A stretch of DNA of 64,000 nucleotides, taken from contig OY970368.1 in assembly GCA_963718615.1 (NCBI GenBank), forward strand, positions 5,856,001-5,920,000, written 5' to 3'. Source of the stretch: an uncultured cyanobacterium. Its GTDB lineage: Bacteria; Cyanobacteriota; Cyanobacteriia; PCC-9006; JAAUQQ01. The notes under the pieces are model-generated. The model was not told the DNA's origin. It searched no databases and saw nothing but the letters and a program-made list of their open reading frames with translations. Below are positions 1 through 9,071 of the stretch, piece by piece; positions within the stretch are counted from its first letter, which is position 1; each line of letters begins with the position of its first letter. Both the position numbers and the translations under genes were made by a program.

Positions 1-510
1 CAGACCTTTGAACAGGTCGCGCCCTATGCCGCATCGCTGGAGTCGCCGCGATCGCTTCCCCTCCTCTCCACCCTCCGCCAAGTGGCCAAAAGCCTGGAGC
101 CTCGATTACAAGACCGAGGGCACCGTCTAGAGATTGACGGGGATAACGCCATAGAAATCTGTAGCCATGGAGGGGCGATCGCCCAAGTCTTGAGCAACCT
201 CATCCTCAACTCCCTACAGCACGCCTATCCAGCGGGACAATCTGGACAGATCACTGTCTCCGTGGAGTCTCTACCGGAGGCGTTACAAATTCGTTACGCG
301 GATGATGGCCAAGGCATTGCTCCCGAACATTTGGGGCGGATTTTTGAACCGTTTTTTACGACAGCGCGATCGCAAGGCGGCAGCGGCCTAGGATTATCGA
401 TTGTTTATAATCTGGTTACTCAAACCCTCCAAGGCACCCTTCGCTGTGACAGTACAGTTGGAGAGGGAACCACCTTCTGGATCACCCTGCCTATCCGTTT
501 GGTCCACTGA
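1..510 (+). CDS. Sensor histidine kinase, C-terminal HATPase_c domain (5' end outside window)
   Basis: Frame 1 is open from base 1. N box [11 protein letters not shown]1 DDGQGI, F box IFEPFFTT, G2 GGSGLGL, GEGTTF. Confidence 0.9.
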
Positions 511-520
511 CCCTCTGTTT

Positions 521-1060
521 ATGCTCCCTTCCCCAATGCTCTCCATGCATTCCGACCTTTGGCCCGAGCCTGCTTTGGGTTCCCAACCCCAAAATCCCGA
601 CAGCCTTGGTGCCGATTCCGGCGAGGCTGCGCCGCCCTGGAAAGTCATGTTGGTGGATGATGATTTGCAAGTGCATCAAGTGACTAAGCTAGCCCTGCGG
701 CGCTTTCAGTTTGAAGGCCGACGGCTTTCGTTTCTGTCTGCCTATTCCGGTCAAGAAGCCATTGAGTTGCTCACCTCCCATCCGGATACGGCCCTGATTT
801 TGCTCGACATTGTGATGGAAACCAACGACGCTGGTTTACAGGTCATTGAGAAGATTCGCCAAGAAATTAAAAATCTCAAGATTCAGATTGTGGTTCGTAC
901 CGGACAACCTGGAGAAGCACCGGAAGAGTCTGTCGTCTTAAATTACGAAATCAATGACTACCGCACTAAACTGGAATTAACCCAGCAAAAACTCTTCACC
1001 ACCGTGATTACTAGTCTACGCGCCTACCGAACCCTGCAAGGACTCTGGGTCAACACCTGA
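521..1060 (+). CDS. Response regulator (receiver domain), probable partner of the upstream kinase
   Basis: WKVMLVDDD, LILLDIVME (phospho-Asp), RTGQPG, NDYRTK. ATG at 521, 10 nt after the kinase stop. Confidence 0.85.
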   Translation: MLPSPMLSMHSDLWPEPALGSQPQNPDSLGADSGEAAPPWKVMLVDDDLQVHQVTKLALRRFQFEGRRLSFLSAYSGQEAIELLTSHPDTALILLDIVMETNDAGLQVIEKIRQEIKNLKIQIVVRTGQPGEAPEESVVLNYEINDYRTKLELTQQKLFTTVITSLRAYRTLQGLWVNT

Positions 1061-1518
1061 ATTTCTAACGACAAGGCGTTGCTGAAGCTACAAAATGATG
1101 TTAATTTTGGTTTCAGATACGTCAATGGAATCTATTCGGGTTAGCCAGGTGACTTGCAAGGCTTCAATTCTGGGTGCTAAAAGCTACTCAAGTGAAGTCT
1201 GCATAAAGAGAAACAAAGGGCTAGCAGGATGAACAAGCCACGTGTTAACCTGAGCGATGGCTTGTGAGCCATGTTGACTCATCGATAAGATACGATTTAG
1301 GTTTTACAAACATTGCTTTTCAAAGTGAGCGATAAAAAACTGGCAGGCGCTCAGTTGGATGAAGTGCAAGAATCCTTTCAGCTTAATCGAGGATTTAGGA
1401 CAGGTAGACCCAGCCACGGGTGGTTTGGTCTGTCTCTTTCCGCAAGGTTCCGTGCAAAACGGAACATGTTTGTAATCGATTTTGAGTAAATTCCAAATCC
1501 ATACCGGGAGGATTGTCC

Positions 1519-2022
1519 GTGTCTATACGTCTTTATGTCGGCAATTTGCCAAAAGAGCTAGAGCGCCAAGAGTTAGAGGCCGTTTTTGCGGAAGCGGGGG
1601 ATTCAGTTTCCACGAAGCTGGTCACCGATCGCAAAACTGGCAAATGTCGCGGCTTTGGGTTCGTAACGGTCCCCACCGATGAAGAGGCAGATGCCATCAT
1701 CGAAAAGTTTAATGGCTACATGCTCAAGGATAGCGAGCTCAAAATTGAGAAGGCTTTACCCCGTGCTAAGGGTAAGGGCGAGGGCAATGAAGGGGGCAGC
1801 AGCAACAGCGGTGGTAGTGGTGGCAGTGGTGGCAGTGGTGGCGGCGGTGGCGGCGGTGGCGGTGCCCGTCGTCGTTCCGGTGGCGCTGGCAACAGCAACA
1901 ATAAAGGCTCTCGTGGGGCTCGTGTCATTTCCTCCGGTGGACCCGAAGGATTTCAGCCTGATCCGCGTTGGGCAGGTGATCTAGCTAAGCTCAAGGAAAT
2001 GTTAGCTGCGCAGAATTCCTAA
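1519..2022 (+). CDS. RRM RNA-binding protein, Rbp3/RbpG-like long class
   Basis: RNP2 LYVGNL, RNP1 RGFGFV, Gly-rich linker, conserved C-terminal QPDPRWA..L.KLKEML. GTG start after GGAGG. Confidence 0.9.
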   Translation: MSIRLYVGNLPKELERQELEAVFAEAGDSVSTKLVTDRKTGKCRGFGFVTVPTDEEADAIIEKFNGYMLKDSELKIEKALPRAKGKGEGNEGGSSNSGGSGGSGGSGGGGGGGGGARRRSGGAGNSNNKGSRGARVISSGGPEGFQPDPRWAGDLAKLKEMLAAQNS

Positions 2023-2059
2023 AGAATTGCCTGACATTATCCCTGAAATCATCAAACAG

Positions 2060-2091
2060 AAGCCTCCATGCAATCCGATGGAGGCTTTTTT
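2060..2091 (+). terminator. Rho-independent terminator after the rbp gene, possibly bidirectional with crtB
   Basis: Stem AAGCCTCCAT / ATGGAGGCTT followed by a T-run, between convergent genes. Confidence 0.8.
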
Positions 2092-2147
2092 ATCAGGGCT
2101 TTGCAAGCGCTAGGCAAGGGCGGAGAGCCTTAACCTTCTAGGCCTCT

Positions 2148-3080
2148 CTAGGAAACATTTGCCCGGAGCCAAGCAACCGGCAGGCTGACCATTTTTCGCG
2201 CATTGGACACATAGGCCCGCTGGGAAAACACATCGTAGTCATTGGCTTCGATCGCATCCAAAATCTGACTGTAAACCAAGAGCGAGGACCAAACGGGCCA
2301 GCGGGCGTTGCGACTCAGGGCACGAATACCGCGCTCCGCTTCGGTGTAATACTTGCGTGCCCGCTGGATCTGAAACCGCATGAGCGATCGCCAACGGTCA
2401 TCTACGACACCCCGCATCAAATCTTCTTCGGTATAGTTAAACAGGGCCAAATCTTCTAACGGTAAATAAATGCGGCCCCGGCGGGCATCTTCACCTACGT
2501 CCCGCAGGATGTTCGTCAATTGGTTGGCAATGCCGAGGGCGATCGCTTCATCAATCGGTCCCGTCTCGCTCAAAGCCTGCTGCGGATTCCAAGGCGTCGG
2601 CGCAGGCGGTTCCACCCCCATTACCACCGTAGACATTAAGCCCACCGTCCCAGCCACGCGGTAGCAGTAGAGCCAAAGGTCTTCAAAGCTTTCGTAGCGG
2701 TTACGCACCAGGTCCATGCGCTGCCCCTCGATCATGTCGCGGAAGGGCTGGATATCCAGGGGAAAACGCTCTAGGGTATCGACCAAGGCAACATCTTCGT
2801 CATCAATGGCATGACCGGCAAAATTTGCTTCCAACTGGTGTTCCCACTTGTCTAGGGTGTCCAGGGTTGTAAATTTGGCACCGGGACCATCGACCAATTC
2901 ATCTGTGCGACGACACCAGACATAGATAGCCCAGATCGCCTGACGCTTTTCCTCTGGCATGAGGAGTGTGGCGAGGTAAAACGACTTGGAATATTCAGCC
3001 GTCACCTGCCGACAAGCTTCATAGGCCTCTTCAAGCGAGACCAAGGTTTCCGTACATGGCGTTTCAGTCAGTTGGAGCAT
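2148..3080 (-). CDS. crtB: Phytoene synthase
   Basis: YSKSFYL, WCRRTDELVD, YCYRVAGTVG, LGIANQLTNILRDVGEDARRGRIYLP motifs. Confidence 0.96.
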   Translation of the reverse strand: MLQLTETPCTETLVSLEEAYEACRQVTAEYSKSFYLATLLMPEEKRQAIWAIYVWCRRTDELVDGPGAKFTTLDTLDKWEHQLEANFAGHAIDDEDVALVDTLERFPLDIQPFRDMIEGQRMDLVRNRYESFEDLWLYCYRVAGTVGLMSTVVMGVEPPAPTPWNPQQALSETGPIDEAIALGIANQLTNILRDVGEDARRGRIYLPLEDLALFNYTEEDLMRGVVDDRWRSLMRFQIQRARKYYTEAERGIRALSRNARWPVWSSLLVYSQILDAIEANDYDVFSQRAYVSNARKMVSLPVAWLRANVS

Positions 3081-3265
3081 TCGAGACAGACGATGGATAG
3101 GTCACTGTTCCAATCTGCATACGATGAACCCAACAGGCGTCAAACCTAAAGGCACCGCAGAGCGTGGAAATACCCGCGAAGGGAGTAGCACCACAAACCA
3201 AAACGCAGGAGCGCCCACAGCTTATGAGAAGGCTCCGGGGTCCAATCAGCCTTTGCCACACCGCC

Positions 3266-3362
3266 TTAATCGCAAAGGATAGAATAGCATTTGGCGATCG
3301 CCTGCGCTGTCAGCTTACCAGAAACCCAACCGCCTCCTCTCATTCCCTTCAGGGATGCTGGC
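3266..3362 (-). pseudogene. crtP: Decayed 3' remnant of cyanobacterial phytoene desaturase crtP (pds)
   Basis: Minus strand 3322-3293 reads SGKLTAQAIA exactly, preceded by indel-broken GCC AGC AT.. GAA GGG .. GCG GTT (A-S-M-E-G-A-V). This matches the CrtP C-terminus ASMEGAVLSGKLTAQAI and sits directly upstream of crtB, where crtP normally lies. Confidence 0.7.
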
Positions 3363-3535
3363 ATCTGAGGGAAATCGATGGTTGTGCAATGCAAAATGCC
3401 CGAGAGGCGGATTTTACAATCACTCCCAAGACCGATCTAAGACTGAGTTTTCGGATCCCTGTGACTTCGCTAACATGGTTCATTATACTTTGCATTTTGT
3501 AACATTCTGCGTTTTAGCAGATGGGGAAATCTGAG

Positions 3536-5044
3536 ATGAACATTATCGTGATCGGCAGCGGGTTTGGCGGACTAGCAGCAGCAAACCGTCTGCAAGCCCA
3601 AGGCCATCGGGTGCAGATTCTGGAAAAGCGGGATAGGGCGGGGGGGCGTGCCTACGTTTATGAGCAGGATGGTTTTAAGTTTGATGGGGGACCGACGATT
3701 ATTACGGCTCCCTACATCATTGACGACATCTTCAAGGCAGCGGGGAAACAGCGGCAGGACTATGTCCAACTGCAAAAGTTGGATCCCTTCTACAACATTC
3801 GCTTCCCCGACGGATCGGTGTTTCACTATGTCGATCGCGAAGAAGATTTAATCGATCAGATTAAAAAATTCAATGCTGCGGACCTGCCGGGCTACTACAA
3901 ACTCAAGAAAAAAGCCCAGGAAACCTACGAAAAGGCCATGCCGCTGATCGACAAGCCCTTTATCAAGCTAGGCGAAATGATGAAGGCGGCCCCGGATATG
4001 ATCAAGGTTCAGGCCTATCGTTCCGTCGCAGGCATCGTCAATAGCTACATCAAGGACGAGCGGCTGCGGCAAATTTTTAGTTTTCACCCCCTGTTTTTAG
4101 GGGGAAATCCCTTCCAGAGCAGCGCCATGTACACGATGATCCATCGCCTAGAGCAGGAGATGGGGGTGTGGTTCGCCATGGGGGGCACTGGGGCCTTAGT
4201 TCAGGGATTTGTGAAGCTGTTTGAAGACCAGGGGGGCGAGATTCGCTACAACTGCGAAGTGGATCAAATTCTCATGAACGAGGCCACGGGTAAAGCGCGG
4301 GGGGTGCGTCTGGCTAATGGCGAGGAACTGGCGGCGGATATCGTGGTTTGCAATGGGGAAATTGGCAATGCCTACCTGAACCTGGTGCCCAAGCAGTTCC
4401 GCAAGCGCAATACGGATCGTCGTGTAAAGGGCTTCAAATATTCCATGGGGGTGTTTGTTCTCTACTTCGGCACGGACCGCCAGTATGACAACATGGCCCA
4501 CCACGAAATCATCATGGGGCCGCGCTACAAGGAACTCCTGACGGATATCTTTAGCAAGAAACATCTGGCGGATGATTTTTCGCTGTATTTGCACCGGCCT
4601 ACGGCGACGGACCCGTCCATGGCTCCGGCGGGCTGTGACTGCTGGTATGCCCTAGCGCCGGTTCCCAACCTCCAGGCGGATGTGGACTGGACGACGAAGG
4701 CCAAGGACTATCGTGATGTCATCGTCAAGTTCTTGGAGGAGCGCTATATGCCGGATTTGTCGAAGCATATTATTTCCGAATACTCGATCGACCCGCTCCA
4801 TTTCCAGAATGTGCTGAATAGCTATCAGGGCAGCGCCTTTGCGATTGAACCGACGCTCACCCAATCGGCCTGGTTCCGCTTCCACAACCGCAGCGAAGAC
4901 ATCGACAATCTCTACTTTGTCGGGGCAGGTACCCATCCAGGGGCAGGGGTTCCGGGGGTTCTGAGCTCGGGCAAGATTGTGGCTGACATGATTGGCACGG
5001 CCCCCAAAACGGCTACGGCAGAACCCACGTTAGTGAGCGCATAA
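3536..5044 (+). CDS. crtI: Bacterial-type (CrtI) phytoene desaturase
   Basis: GSGFGGLAAA FAD motif, GGRAYVYEQDGFKFDGGPTIITAP, DDFSLYLHRPTATDPSMAP, C-terminal QSAWFR.HN...NLYFVGAGTHPGAGVPGV signature. Alternative start 3521. Confidence 0.85.
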   Translation: MNIIVIGSGFGGLAAANRLQAQGHRVQILEKRDRAGGRAYVYEQDGFKFDGGPTIITAPYIIDDIFKAAGKQRQDYVQLQKLDPFYNIRFPDGSVFHYVDREEDLIDQIKKFNAADLPGYYKLKKKAQETYEKAMPLIDKPFIKLGEMMKAAPDMIKVQAYRSVAGIVNSYIKDERLRQIFSFHPLFLGGNPFQSSAMYTMIHRLEQEMGVWFAMGGTGALVQGFVKLFEDQGGEIRYNCEVDQILMNEATGKARGVRLANGEELAADIVVCNGEIGNAYLNLVPKQFRKRNTDRRVKGFKYSMGVFVLYFGTDRQYDNMAHHEIIMGPRYKELLTDIFSKKHLADDFSLYLHRPTATDPSMAPAGCDCWYALAPVPNLQADVDWTTKAKDYRDVIVKFLEERYMPDLSKHIISEYSIDPLHFQNVLNSYQGSAFAIEPTLTQSAWFRFHNRSEDIDNLYFVGAGTHPGAGVPGVLSSGKIVADMIGTAPKTATAEPTLVSA

Positions 5045-5049
5045 AGTCT

Positions 5050-5132
5050 GTAGGTTGGCGTTGAGCGCAGCGAAACCCAACGGCATTGAGCCTAGACAGG
5101 GCTGTTGGGTTTCATGCTTCAACCCAACCTAC
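5050..5132. repeat. REP-like inverted-repeat element (GTAGGTTGG...CCAACCTAC), copy 1
   Basis: GTAGGTTGGCGTTGAGCGCAGCGAAACCCAAC ... GTTGGGTTTCATGCTTCAACCCAACCTAC between convergent genes; homologous copy at 28486. Confidence 0.85.
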
Positions 5133-5151
5133 GGGATTCATGACACTCTTG

Positions 5152-6708
5152 TTACATCGATCTCATAATTTTGGGCTTGAAGGCGATTCCCGCTGCTGGG
5201 GCTGCGCTCAGGCGGTTGAGGGCAATTTGCTGGTAACGGCGGGACAATTCGTTTTGTCCTGTAAGTTTTGCCCAGTCCGCGAACCAGGTGGAGTAGGTCG
5301 CAGCATTGGGCAGTTGTACAATCACCTGCTCCGAACTCTGCTGAATTTCCTGCCACACCTGGGGCTGGCTGAGGTATTCTCGCTGGTTGCCTTGGTGGTT
5401 GGCGATCGCCCCATGGATCACCGGCAACAGCATCGGCAAGGCACTATCACGGGGAGCCTCAGCCTGGGCCGCGCGCAAAAACTGGAGCGCCGCTTGGCCA
5501 CTGCCCGTTTTATCCTGGGCGACCAAGTAGGACGCTTTTTCCAAATGGGCTTGGAATGAGTGGGGCCAAACCTGATTGACCGCTTGAAATGCGGCTTCAA
5601 TCGTCTGGTTCCGTTGGGCACTGCCCAGCTTCGGGGCCTCTTTAGCTGGGGTACTGCCCTCCGGTACGACTCCCATTTTGGCCAACCGTAGCTTAGACAT
5701 TAGGGCCGCTGGATTTTTGGCATCAAGGGAAATCGCGATTTGGGTGTCGGTGAGACTGGTGGCTTCGAGGCGATCGCGATCCGCCTGGGTCGGAGGACAA
5801 TGCTTTCGCTGTTGCCCAGGGGTCAGCGCAACATCCTGCCAGAGGGACGCTTGGGTGAAATAGGCTCGCGTGGTATAAGCCATACTGCTACGCGGCGACT
5901 CGGTAACCCAATCGTTGAGCTTAGCCATCAGTTGCTTTGTCAACACAGCATCATCACTAGAAGCCGCATTCACCAAAACCGCATCGGCATAATCTAGGCC
6001 CTCGGGGGTCAATTGACGGGTTTGGGTGACCTGATTCAGAAACGCTTCTGCTTGTTTAAACTGGCCCTGCTGAATCCAGGACCGCAGTTGGTGAGCAGCA
6101 TTGTCCAGACTCTCGGGGGATGACTGGGCAGCGGAGTCTGCCGCAGGGTCTGAAAGCACATGGTAGCGATTTTGCACCACCGCAATATACTGCTCTTCAG
6201 CCCGCTTTAGCCCTGCCTGATAGATAGCCAGCTTGGTTTGGGCGTTGAGGTATTGCGGAGAATTCGGCTCGATTTCGCTGAGGAAATTAATGGCGGATTG
6301 CCATTGGCTGATGATCTGGTTCCAGTCGGTGTTGGTGATGGCGGATTGTTCGGCGATCGCCGCACTATGGGCCGCTGAAACCCCTGCATCCCAATACTTT
6401 TGCTGTCGCTTGAGCTGTTGCTCAGACCACTGAATTTTGGGGGCAGCCGTAACTGTATCGGGACTGCTTTCAGGCAGATTGACTTCCGGCACCGCAGATG
6501 GCACTGGAATTGCAGGAGCCCCGGTTCGGGCAGTGCGAGATCGGGCTTTTGTTTCGGAGCCCGCTGCATCGTTTATGGAGGAAGGTTTTGAGAACGATTC
6601 CGAGGACAAATGATCTTGGGTCAGCGACCAAGCCACCTTGGCGCAGCCGAGACCCGCCGTTGCCAGGACACAGGAGAGTGTCGTCAAAGAGAGGCTCTTA
6701 GACGTCAT
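5152..6708 (-). CDS. Exported helical-repeat hypothetical protein, possibly DUF4034-like C-terminal part
   Basis: N-terminal hydrophobic segment, Pro-rich linker, cyanobacterial helical module (DWNQIISQWQSAINFL..I.PNSPQY..AQ.K), LNDW....PRSS.AY..RA motif. Confidence 0.6.
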   Translation of the reverse strand: MTSKSLSLTTLSCVLATAGLGCAKVAWSLTQDHLSSESFSKPSSINDAAGSETKARSRTARTGAPAIPVPSAVPEVNLPESSPDTVTAAPKIQWSEQQLKRQQKYWDAGVSAAHSAAIAEQSAITNTDWNQIISQWQSAINFLSEIEPNSPQYLNAQTKLAIYQAGLKRAEEQYIAVVQNRYHVLSDPAADSAAQSSPESLDNAAHQLRSWIQQGQFKQAEAFLNQVTQTRQLTPEGLDYADAVLVNAASSDDAVLTKQLMAKLNDWVTESPRSSMAYTTRAYFTQASLWQDVALTPGQQRKHCPPTQADRDRLEATSLTDTQIAISLDAKNPAALMSKLRLAKMGVVPEGSTPAKEAPKLGSAQRNQTIEAAFQAVNQVWPHSFQAHLEKASYLVAQDKTGSGQAALQFLRAAQAEAPRDSALPMLLPVIHGAIANHQGNQREYLSQPQVWQEIQQSSEQVIVQLPNAATYSTWFADWAKLTGQNELSRRYQQIALNRLSAAPAAGIAFKPKIMRSM

Positions 6709-6949
6709 GGGGCGAATACCAATTTTGCTGAAAGACGGGCCGCTCTTCGAGATGGGGTTTCGGGATGGGGTAGTGCAGGGGAGAGGTGCTCAAGGCTCTC
6801 CGCAGCGGCTATAAGCTTAGACTTCCCGAAAAAATTGCAGGAAAAACGCTTGCGACAAAGGGGTACCCCGATAGGGCAAAGTTGATTGGGGCTGACAGCC
6901 CGATCCATAATGACAGGGCACCGCATTCGTCAGGACCATCGCTCCCGTA

Positions 6950-7582
6950 ATGAGTCTCGCCAGCGACCTCTGGAATCAGCATCAATCCCTCGCCCAAGCC
7001 TGTCTACACCACCCTTTTGTCCAAGGGATTGCCGACGGTACCCTGCCCAAGGCCAAATTTGCCTACTACGTTGGTCAAGACGCCTTCTTCCTTGATGCCT
7101 TCGCCCGTGCCTACAGCATTTGCGCCGCCAAGGCTCCAACCCTAGAGAGTTTTCAACTTTTTCATCAACTGGCAGGCGGAGTGCTCGAAGAACGCCAACT
7201 CCACTACCACTATGCCAAAGCTTGGGGCGTAGATCTCACCCAGGTGAGTCCCGGCATCACCACCCGTCGCTACGTCGATTTCCTCAGTGCCTCCGCCTGG
7301 AGCCAAGCCATTGGCCTAACCGCAACTGCCATGGCCCCTTGTATGCGGCTCTATGCCTATCTGGGCCAAGCCCTGACGACAGACGGTATTCCTGACCATG
7401 GCTATCGCGATTGGCTCACCACCTATCGCGAACCCCTATTTGAAGATTTGGCCCAGCAGCTCGAACATTTGTTGGATCAGTATGCCGCACCTTGGGATGG
7501 CGATCGCCTACAAGCCACCTACGGGTACGCTATGCAATGCGAGCTCGACTTCTTCCAAGCCGCCTGGGAGGCCCATCCATGA
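6950..7582 (+). CDS. tenA: TenA family thiaminase II / aminopyrimidine aminohydrolase
   Basis: HPFVQGIADGTL, YVGQDAFFL, MAPCMRLY (Cys), YRDWL.TY, ELDFF. Confidence 0.88.
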   Translation: MSLASDLWNQHQSLAQACLHHPFVQGIADGTLPKAKFAYYVGQDAFFLDAFARAYSICAAKAPTLESFQLFHQLAGGVLEERQLHYHYAKAWGVDLTQVSPGITTRRYVDFLSASAWSQAIGLTATAMAPCMRLYAYLGQALTTDGIPDHGYRDWLTTYREPLFEDLAQQLEHLLDQYAAPWDGDRLQATYGYAMQCELDFFQAAWEAHP

Positions 7583-8937
7583 CAGTTCCCCGCACCGTTT
7601 GCCTTGGCTTTCTAGGCGTGATTGCTGTGGGAACCTTGCTCTTGTTGCTACCGTTCTCCACCCTTGAAGCGGGCTGGGATCTCAGCGTCAATCCTCTTTT
7701 TACGGCAACATCCGCAGTCTGCGTGACAGGCCTCTCCGTCGTCGATGTTAGCCATTACTACAGCGGCATAGGACAATTCATCATCATGTTCCTGGCCCAG
7801 GTCGGTGGCTTGGGGTACATGACCGCAACCACCTTTTTGATTTTGATTCTGGGTCAGCGGTTCCGGCTGCGCGAAAAAATTGCCATTCAAAAAACCCTCG
7901 ATGCCCCTGGCATCAACGGCTCTAAACAGCTCATTCTTTCGATTATTAGTCTCACGGCACTGTTTGAGCTGACTGGGACTTTTTTGCTGATGGTGCAGTT
8001 TGTACCGGAATTTGGCTGGCAGCAAGGCATTTGGTTCTCCCTATTTCATAGCATTAGCGCCTTTAACAACGCCGGGTTCAGCCTCTTTTCCGATAGCCTA
8101 GTGGGCTATGCCCAATCCCCTTATCTCATCGGTGTCATCAGCATCTTGATCATTGCCGGAGGAATTGGTTACCAAGCTACGATGGAAGGATTTTTAGTCT
8201 TGCGAGACATATTCGGCAGGCTGCGCGCCAAAAACCTCACCAATCCACCGGGTCGATTTTGGGTTTCGCTTAACTTTAAAGTCGCGACCACGACCACCTG
8301 GGTTTTGCTGGTGGGTGGAACCCTGGCCTTCTTCGCCACAGAATTTGGGAATGCGGACACCTTAGGCGAGCTGAACTTTGGCCAGAAACTGCTGTCGGCT
8401 TGGTTTCAGTCGGTCACCACTCGGACGGCGGGCTTCAATAGCATCGACATTGGCGAAATGACCACAGCGGGTCTGTTTATTACGATCGCCCTAATGTTCA
8501 TTGGAGCCAGCCCCGGCGGCACGGGCGGCGGCGTCAAGACCACCACCATTCGCATTTTGGCAGGCTGTACCGCAGCGGTGTTGCGGGGAAAAGAGGAAGT
8601 CATTTGTTTCGATCGCCGTCTACCCACCGATGTGATTCTCAAGGCCGTGGGGGTGGTGTTTGGTTCGCTGATGACCGTAATCATTGTGACCATCTTGCTC
8701 TCCTGGACCGAACCTGATTTGCCCTTCATTGGCCTCTTTTTTGAAGCGGTGTCGGCCTTCGCCACGGTCGGCCTTTCGGCGAATCTGACCACCAGTCTGT
8801 CGTTGATGAGCAAGCTGATTATCATTGTGACGATGTACGTCGGACGGGTGGGGGTTTTGCTGATGATGTCGGCGATTTTGGGCGACCCAGAACCCAGCCA
8901 GATTCGCTACCCTGAAGATGAGCTTCTAGTCGGTTAA
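7579..8937 (+). CDS. ktrB: Ktr/Trk potassium uptake membrane subunit
   Basis: FTATSAVCVTGL, SAFNNAGF, TRTAGFN, SPGGTGGGVK, SAFATVGLS P-loops. ATG overlaps the tenA stop (ATGA). Confidence 0.92.
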   Translation: MTVPRTVCLGFLGVIAVGTLLLLLPFSTLEAGWDLSVNPLFTATSAVCVTGLSVVDVSHYYSGIGQFIIMFLAQVGGLGYMTATTFLILILGQRFRLREKIAIQKTLDAPGINGSKQLILSIISLTALFELTGTFLLMVQFVPEFGWQQGIWFSLFHSISAFNNAGFSLFSDSLVGYAQSPYLIGVISILIIAGGIGYQATMEGFLVLRDIFGRLRAKNLTNPPGRFWVSLNFKVATTTTWVLLVGGTLAFFATEFGNADTLGELNFGQKLLSAWFQSVTTRTAGFNSIDIGEMTTAGLFITIALMFIGASPGGTGGGVKTTTIRILAGCTAAVLRGKEEVICFDRRLPTDVILKAVGVVFGSLMTVIIVTILLSWTEPDLPFIGLFFEAVSAFATVGLSANLTTSLSLMSKLIIIVTMYVGRVGVLLMMSAILGDPEPSQIRYPEDELLVG

Positions 8938-9071
8938 TCGGTGGGTGAATCAGTGGCTCTAGCCTTCGCTACAAACTCGGATGCACACTTAGGTTCAAAC
9001 TCAGGTTCAAGCCATCGCTGAATCGCGTTAGCCATGGGGTAGGATTTTGATCACACTGAGGATTAACAATT

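Follow-up and report, generated by a model that had tools for sequence, protein, structure and literature searches.

A bacterial-type crtI gene beside a crtP remnant and crtB in a cyanobacterium lacking crtP, crtQ, crtH and Z-ISO

Introduction

How does a cyanobacterium come to carry a bacterial-type phytoene desaturase gene, crtI, beside its phytoene synthase gene crtB, at the place where crtP would be expected? The question is raised by a stretch of 64,000 nucleotides from an uncultured cyanobacterium (assembly GCA_963718615.1, contig OY970368.1, positions 5,856,001 to 5,920,000), which is called the window below. An earlier interpretation made from the letters of the window alone (the sequence-only reading) had proposed that crtI displaced the carotene desaturation route in situ, and had predicted that crtQ and crtH might be lost.

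The available passages of Takaichi 2025 (PMC11857680) and of the Anthocerotibacter preprint of 2021 (10.1101/2021.02.18.431691) treat the plant-type route as a hallmark of oxygenic phototrophs and name Gloeobacter as the sole cyanobacterial user of CrtI; for the CrtI route of Gloeobacter violaceus both cite Tsuchiya et al. 2005 and Steiger et al. 2005. In the literature covered, which includes the available parts of PMC9907078 and PMC2889829, is incomplete and excludes supplements, we found no crown-group cyanobacterium described in which CrtI has taken the place of CrtP.

Results

Gene content and enzyme identity

The explanation that we consider best, and very probable as a whole, is that a bacterial crtI replaced the crtP route in place in the ancestor of the family of this organism. 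The non-orthologous displacement put forward in the sequence-only reading is supported by the presence of CrtI at the crtP position, by a crtP scar at the locus and by the absence of crtP, crtQ, crtH and Z-ISO from the genome. The locus is laid out as follows, in window coordinates:

2148..3080, minus strand: crtB, 15-cis-phytoene synthase of cyanobacterial type, 310 aa (NF045686, PF00494)
3081..3520, no strand: divergent crtB-crtI spacer of 440 bp with the crtP remnant, presumably holding both promoters
3521..5044, plus strand: crtI, predicted bacterial-type phytoene desaturase dependent on flavin adenine dinucleotide (FAD), 507 aa, alternative start at 3536

The product of 3521..5044 scored 603.8 bits against TIGR02734 (cut-off 238.1), with residues 8-497 aligned to positions 1-494 of the 504 in the profile. 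The earlier description of a full CrtI gene divergent from crtB beyond a crtP fossil holds. The CrtD models reached 233 bits (cut-off 500) and 214 bits (cut-off 580), the CrtO and CrtH models gave 113 and 111 bits, both far under their cut-offs, and the protein was also far under the cut-off of CrtP. The best solved structure was CrtI of Pantoea (PDB 4dgk, 508.7 bits), with residues 9-490 of the query collinear with 5-486 of chain 4dgk_A, and the CrtD-like structure 4rep gave 219.7 bits. Pantoea CrtI is an FAD-dependent oxidase/isomerase. As in this structurally and biochemically characterised enzyme of Pantoea ananatis, to which it aligns over the full length, the window protein keeps the motifs of both ends, the N-terminal GxGxxG FAD fold (VIGSGFGGLA) and the C-terminal motif (GAGTHPGAG).

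Identity to CrtI of P. ananatis, whose gene lies in a crtY-crtI-crtB cluster, was 48%, and to Thermus CrtI 43%. The CrtI-like gene of Nostoc sp. PCC 7120, a CrtQa candidate that is described as plasmid-borne in the available part of PMC2889829, belongs to the same superfamily but is only 31.0% identical, and a staphylococcal CrtN-like gene is 31.6% identical; the sequences for all four comparisons were taken from plasmid records. In a quick tree of 46 rows, with support from the Shimodaira-Hasegawa-like approximate likelihood ratio test (SH-aLRT) and the genome's own CrtD as outgroup, the latter two sequences paired outside the clade holding the window CrtI; all trees used here are quick searches only. 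From profile scores, structure matches, identities and this tree, the protein is assigned to the CrtI family and not to CrtD, CrtQa or CrtN, its activity being predicted. A grouping with CrtD or CrtQa, which the sequence-only reading had named as evidence against itself, was thus not found.

The genome is a single contig of 6,095,823 bp rated 100% complete. It was searched with reading through stop codons, and the Synechococcus elongatus control was positive each time. In this complete genome the best match was 43.7 bits for crtP (cut-off 569), 51.9 bits for crtQ (cut-off 622) and 156.7 bits for crtH (cut-off 587), the last being CrtD, and Z-ISO (NnrU family, PF07298, cut-off 24.7) had no match. 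The plant-type poly-cis route, defined by CrtP, CrtQ, Z-ISO and CrtH all above their cut-offs, is thus not present. The loss predicted for crtQ and crtH is confirmed and extends to Z-ISO, and a complete crtP/crtQ set elsewhere, the other finding that would have spoken against the displacement, does not occur, as the one-contig genome holds neither gene. A CrtL-type lycopene cyclase (270.6 bits) and a cyanobacterial CrtD (TIGR02733, 774 bits) are present, and lycopene therefore has an outlet.

It could be argued that CrtI is accessory here, a role that it presumably has where both genes occur, and that desaturation is done by an unrecognised and highly divergent CrtP-like enzyme or by another member of the CrtI superfamily. 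Such a paralogue exists outside the window: G000:C1:4148320-4149774 (plus strand) encodes an unclassified protein of the CrtI/CrtISO superfamily whose best NCBIfam score, 138.7 bits, lies below every cut-off (G, C, L and f designate our genomes, contigs, loci and families). In addition, 14 genomes of the class-wide sample carry this type of CrtI together with crtP. We nevertheless regard an accessory role as very unlikely, since matches of CrtP and CrtQ in the genome are confined to the N-terminal nucleotide-binding fold, the crtP gene is destroyed at its own locus, and the loss of Z-ISO and crtH fits an all-trans route.

The crtP remnant in the spacer

In the crtP-bearing relatives compared, crtB lies directly downstream of crtP on the same strand (6/6 loci). 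The window keeps the following traces of this arrangement:

3284..3334, minus strand: crtP remnant, C-terminal motif, CrtP residues ~446-462, without a long frame (tblastn, 24.3 bits)
3293..3324, minus strand: 32-nt core of the remnant including the HIP1 octamer at 3294..3301, candidate cis-element of crtB (family spacer alignment)
3342..3386, minus strand: possible second crtP piece, CrtP residues ~101-115, weak and unproven (E 0.06-0.25)

Each of the six CrtP proteins from these relatives matched 3334..3284 on the minus strand with 24.3 bits in tblastn (11/14 to 11/17 residues identical), where the remnant reads GGWVSGKLTAQAIA against GAVLSGKLTAQAIA of CrtP, the last of its conserved motifs, at the C-terminal end. 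About 17 codons are recognisable as crtP-derived and no intact gene is left. When the spacer was shuffled with its dinucleotides preserved, only 4 of 1000 shuffles reached this score on any strand and with any part of CrtP. The remnant was found on the crtB strand of the crtB-crtI spacer in all eight genomes of the family; the 32-nt block at 3293..3324 is nearly invariant among them, and the rest of the spacer is unalignable. With the matches of all six queries, the shuffle test and the eight family spacers, the crtP fossil of the sequence-only reading proves to be real. The second piece lies in the same frame and is collinear with the first; its E values refer to a database of 601 bp, and it is not recognisably conserved in the relatives.

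At the nucleotide level the block occurs once in this genome, and 31 nt of it match the crtP 3' end of an unrelated crtP-bearing genome (G029) without a difference. The 20-nt pattern TCTGGTAAGCTNACNGCNCA occurs about once each in 157 of 401 sampled genomes of the class, its reversed control in none. In 10/10 genomes compared by coordinates, the pattern coincides with the 3' end of the crtP match. Chance, or similarity around the HIP1 palindrome, could be invoked for a match that is short (17 residues) and includes a copy of HIP1; a 48-residue translation of the region has no match in NCBIfam, for which this query is too short. Given the shuffle result, the recurrence in the whole family at the expected strand, place and protein end, and the 20-nt identity to crtP 3' ends, we give this explanation next to no credence.

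Since the crtP scar lies at the locus, the order of the event is fixed: crtP came first and CrtI second.

The family and the origin of crtI

All seven family relatives searched, which are 62-93% complete and represent two further genera, were without crtP and carried this CrtI at 72-75% identity. In the window and in 5/7 relatives, crtB and crtI adjoin each other in divergent orientation; in the other two the contigs end inside the spacer with the scar still visible. Z-ISO was found in none of the eight family genomes, and CrtH above its cut-off in none of the seven relatives. The crtB genes are 75-83% identical, and the order of the left flank (response regulator, RNA-binding protein, crtB) is kept in the family, the right flank of crtI differing between genera. 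From the shared CrtI state and the conserved left flank we infer that the switch preceded the radiation of the family, that is, the split of its three genera.

One relative has a mixed locus: when G001 (L065) is compared with G003 (L063) and G005 (L066), its crtI is 94% identical to that of another genus and 80% to that of a congener, and the adjacent crtB is 87% identical to the congener and 76% to the other genus. Two causes come into question, recombination that broke within the spacer or a chimeric contig in a metagenome-assembled genome (MAG).

In the trees the family CrtIs form a clade with a support of 100 inside a clade with a support of 95, which also holds sequences of Acidobacteriota (Pyrinomonadaceae), Ktedonobacterales (Chloroflexota) and Gemmatimonadaceae (Gemmatimonadota) and other cyanobacterial CrtIs. 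The trees do not single out a donor for the family CrtIs.

A further explanation would be that this lineage had CrtI from the start and never a functional crtP, so that the locus reflects ancient retention and not displacement. The whole family shares the state, and public MAG titles assign its members to Pseudanabaenaceae or Synechococcales, groups that are often placed early in the crown. Against this stand the crtP remnant at the canonical position, which shows a former crtP, the identity of its core to crown-group crtP at the nucleotide level, and the nesting of the family CrtI among the three non-cyanobacterial phyla. We therefore hold retention to be highly improbable.

The host is a cyanobacterium, since its CrtB exceeds the cut-off of the equivalog NF045686 for cyanobacterial CrtB (558.3 bits, cut-off 550, residues 1-309 of 310; 265.1 bits against PF00494). 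KaiA is present in this genome and was not found in the two genomes tested for comparison, G022 (crtP-less, family f16) and G161 (crtP-bearing, family f36). KaiA together with abundant HIP1 excludes the organism from the Gloeobacter lineage. Rhodopsin (PF01036) had no match in the family, and the control was also without a match.

CrtI and crtP across the class

The class-wide sample comprised 401 species, with crtP called at E <= 1e-120 and CrtI at E <= 1e-80, and the counts are a hand tally of two tables. crtP was present in 347 and absent in 54; CrtI was matched in 66, including 49 of the 54 genomes without crtP, and 17 genomes had both. The crtP-less genomes with CrtI fall in several families and have two types of CrtI. 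The five with neither are 67-99% complete, among them G018 (99%) and G368 (97%).

Type A, the type of the window, occurs without crtP in this family and in G026, G172 and G081. Further genomes with crtP include two with CrtI relatives of 52% identity and one with a match of 34%. The crtP-bearing 7.8-Mb genome G033 holds only a C-terminal fragment of a window-type crtI (G033:C10:133989-134465, L039), which covers residues 340-498 at 68% identity, contains one in-frame TAA and is a decayed copy. In another collection, records of Arthrospira platensis PCC 7345, Calothrix sp. PCC 7103, Oscillatoria princeps and Planktothricoides raciborskii show the same type at 60-64% identity within the same 95-support clade; the count of co-occurrence with crtP comes from the 14 sampled genomes and not from these records. 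In three loci of type-A CrtI inspected in crtP-bearing cyanobacteria, crtI had no carotenoid genes as neighbours.

Type B, the CrtI of family f16, is 42-48% identical to the window CrtI and groups with Thermus. It is also found in 31 crown-group genomes without crtP, with Nodosilinea, Leptothoe and Leptolyngbya sp. KIOST-1 as close relatives; the crown-group proteins are 75-76% identical to Meiothermus proteins. In five other crtP-less genomes checked, two of them crown-group type B, crtQ and crtH were absent. The tallies suggest that the switch from CrtP to CrtI has occurred repeatedly.

A second scar and a possible signal for crtB

Upstream of crtB in the five other crtP-less genomes, a crtP relic was present only in G022 of family f16. 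It is a frame of 101 codons ending approximately at the crtB start (L156 1182..1487, plus strand, on G022:C1), and its C-terminal end matches the CrtP model at 418-452 (E 7e-7), better than it matches any other NCBIfam family. The same frame is present in 3/5 other f16 genomes searched (L157, L158, L159), in one with a TGA stop. Read as a crtP relic, it provides direct physical evidence of a former crtP in the f16 lineage. Since crtI and crtB of G022 are ~0.93 Mb apart, the survival of the crtP 3' end is independent of an adjoining crtI.

In six crtP genes from six families (L023-L028), one codon is common to all at only 29 of 298 invariant degenerate residues. The remnant block nevertheless keeps 18 of 21 bases invariant: this segment, which encodes SGKLTAQ, is one of the two 21-nt windows that rank highest in the gene for nucleotide conservation, which suggests a constraint at the nucleotide level inside crtP. 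For Synechocystis, RppA is reported to bind a promoter that belongs to crtB itself (commentary PMC11663576, review PMC13421787). Because crtB lies directly behind crtP, this promoter would be in or near the crtP 3' end.

On the basis of the second scar in f16 and of the nucleotide-level conservation of the block, we tentatively propose that a signal acting in cis on crtB expression resides in the 3' end of crtP, a proposal to which we give somewhat less than an even chance. Alternatively, the scar may be kept for a small peptide or RNA and not as a promoter or operator of crtB. Short frames span the scar in each genome, two genomes of the second crtP-less family have the 101-codon relic frame intact, and the consensus scan showed no promoter of sigma-70 type at the scar. 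Yet frames, starts and stops differ between genera, the few substitutions within the block alter the encoded residue (A to P, Q to R), Rfam has no match, and the Synechocystis promoter favours crtB as the beneficiary. We therefore consider a peptide or RNA unlikely.

Other features of the locus

One further candidate was located in the spacer:

3461..3489, plus strand: sigma-70-like promoter candidate 5' of crtI (GTGACT, 17 nt, TATACT; consensus scan)

It was the single site of the scan against 0.6 expected in shuffles, which is no evidence of function. The second ATG of crtI at 3536 is a possible start, because the alignments of the relatives begin at residue 5-6. The longest frame of the spacer had no Pfam match and the spacer no Rfam family; over window 1..9000, Rfam gave nothing except one sub-threshold chance match. 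A look for sequencing runs covering window 2000-5200 gave no RNA run, the best DNA share being 0.19.

On the left, window 1513..2022 (plus strand) encodes an RNA-binding protein of the RNA recognition motif (RRM) type with a long glycine-rich tail; it adjoins crtB in 5/7 family loci examined, the contigs of the other two ending in the spacer. On the right, directly 3' of crtI, a 518-aa open reading frame (ORF) at 5152..6708 (minus strand) has a marginal match to DUF4034 (22.1 bits) and to no other family. It is not beside crtI in the relatives, where ligA occupies the place; ligA of this genome is at 4.39 Mb. Nothing in the window is homologous to the ORFs that lie upstream of crtP in other families, and synteny gives no anchor for the far boundary of the replacement.

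HIP1 octamers number two in crtB (2384, 2539), one in the spacer (3294) and none in crtI, as had been counted before for the two genes. At the genome density of 1.45 per kb (8832 copies), 2.2 would be expected in 1524 bp, and the Poisson probability of none is 0.11. The absence is not significant and carries no weight, in line with the earlier caution that it was weak evidence.

Discussion

On the observed gene content, gene order, enzyme family, scar and scar conservation, the following course of events is proposed. The family ancestor would have acquired a bacterial crtI by horizontal transfer, which landed or became fixed at the crtP-crtB locus in inverted orientation, and crtP would then have been lost except for its last few dozen bases. 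CrtI, as a single FAD enzyme, would carry out all four desaturations from 15-cis-phytoene to all-trans-lycopene; this conversion, known from CrtI biochemistry, is assumed here because the other four genes are absent and a lycopene cyclase is present. CrtQ, Z-ISO and CrtH would thereby have become superfluous, and all three were lost, with lycopene passing on to the CrtL-type cyclase, which was kept, and to the myxol branch through CrtD. Desaturation would be uncoupled from plastoquinone and from light-assisted isomerisation, and the scar may have been kept as a cis-acting signal for crtB expression.

Several observations weigh against replacement in place, or against parts of it. Type-A CrtI stands alongside crtP in the 14 sampled genomes (60-64% identity), so that this CrtI alone does not imply replacement. 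In the relatives there are one or two CrtISO-like paralogues (276-363 bits, below the cut-off of 587), which this genome is without. The sister relation of the family CrtIs to Acidobacteriota has a support of only 80 in one of the two quick trees and is not settled by the second. The composition of crtI gives no clear foreign signal, as its GC content at third codon positions (0.679) is only at the 94.8th percentile of long ORFs and its overall GC content (0.541, genome 0.523) is not decisive for foreign origin. In the consensus scan, the crtB strand is without a sigma-70-like promoter at the conserved block.

Events of this kind are known from Gloeobacter, and there is nothing unusual about the enzyme within its well-known family. 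Like Gloeobacter violaceus, this organism combines a cyanobacterial CrtB with one CrtI-type desaturase and is without crtP, crtQ and crtH, and the sampled family f16, crtP-less and KaiA-less, behaves like the Gloeobacter route. The CrtI of that Gloeobacter-like family, however, is 45% identical and belongs to a separate clade (support 100) which also holds Thermus CrtI, and crtI adjoins crtB at the crtP scar here, whereas the two genes are far apart in G022. In Pantoea the gene is part of a plasmid crtY-crtI-crtB operon; in the window it is a single gene that diverges from a crtB of cyanobacterial type. The Nodosilinea/Leptothoe type resembles the present case in being of crown-group cyanobacteria with CrtI and without crtP (31 sampled; crtQ and crtH absent in the two checked), but has the other CrtI subtype, and no crtP relic lies upstream of crtB in the two genomes checked. 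Of interest here are the scar left in place, its conservation, and the breadth of the CrtI pattern beyond Gloeobacter.

Taken together, replacement by CrtI would be recurrent, in about 1 in 8 sampled species, in several families and by two unrelated subtypes, and the crtP 3' end would have been kept in two independent lineages because it doubles as a cis-acting crtB signal that could not be lost with the gene. For this combined proposal our confidence falls a little short of even.

CrtI is insensitive to bleaching herbicides of the norflurazon type, and the organism is predicted to be insensitive to norflurazon. The available part of PMC5703498 gives phytoene desaturase (PDS) as the target of this herbicide.

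A cyanobacterium that bears a clock, is rich in HIP1 and is of the thylakoid type would thus have made the switch from CrtP to CrtI, in contrast to the view that confines it to Gloeobacter. The family may serve as a natural experiment on why oxygenic phototrophs normally keep a four-enzyme, plastoquinone-linked and partly light-dependent pathway, on the regulation of a carotenoid synthesis that no longer runs through this pathway, and on the norflurazon sensitivity of environmental cyanobacteria. The conserved scar, in turn, points to an unmapped candidate regulatory element ahead of crtB.

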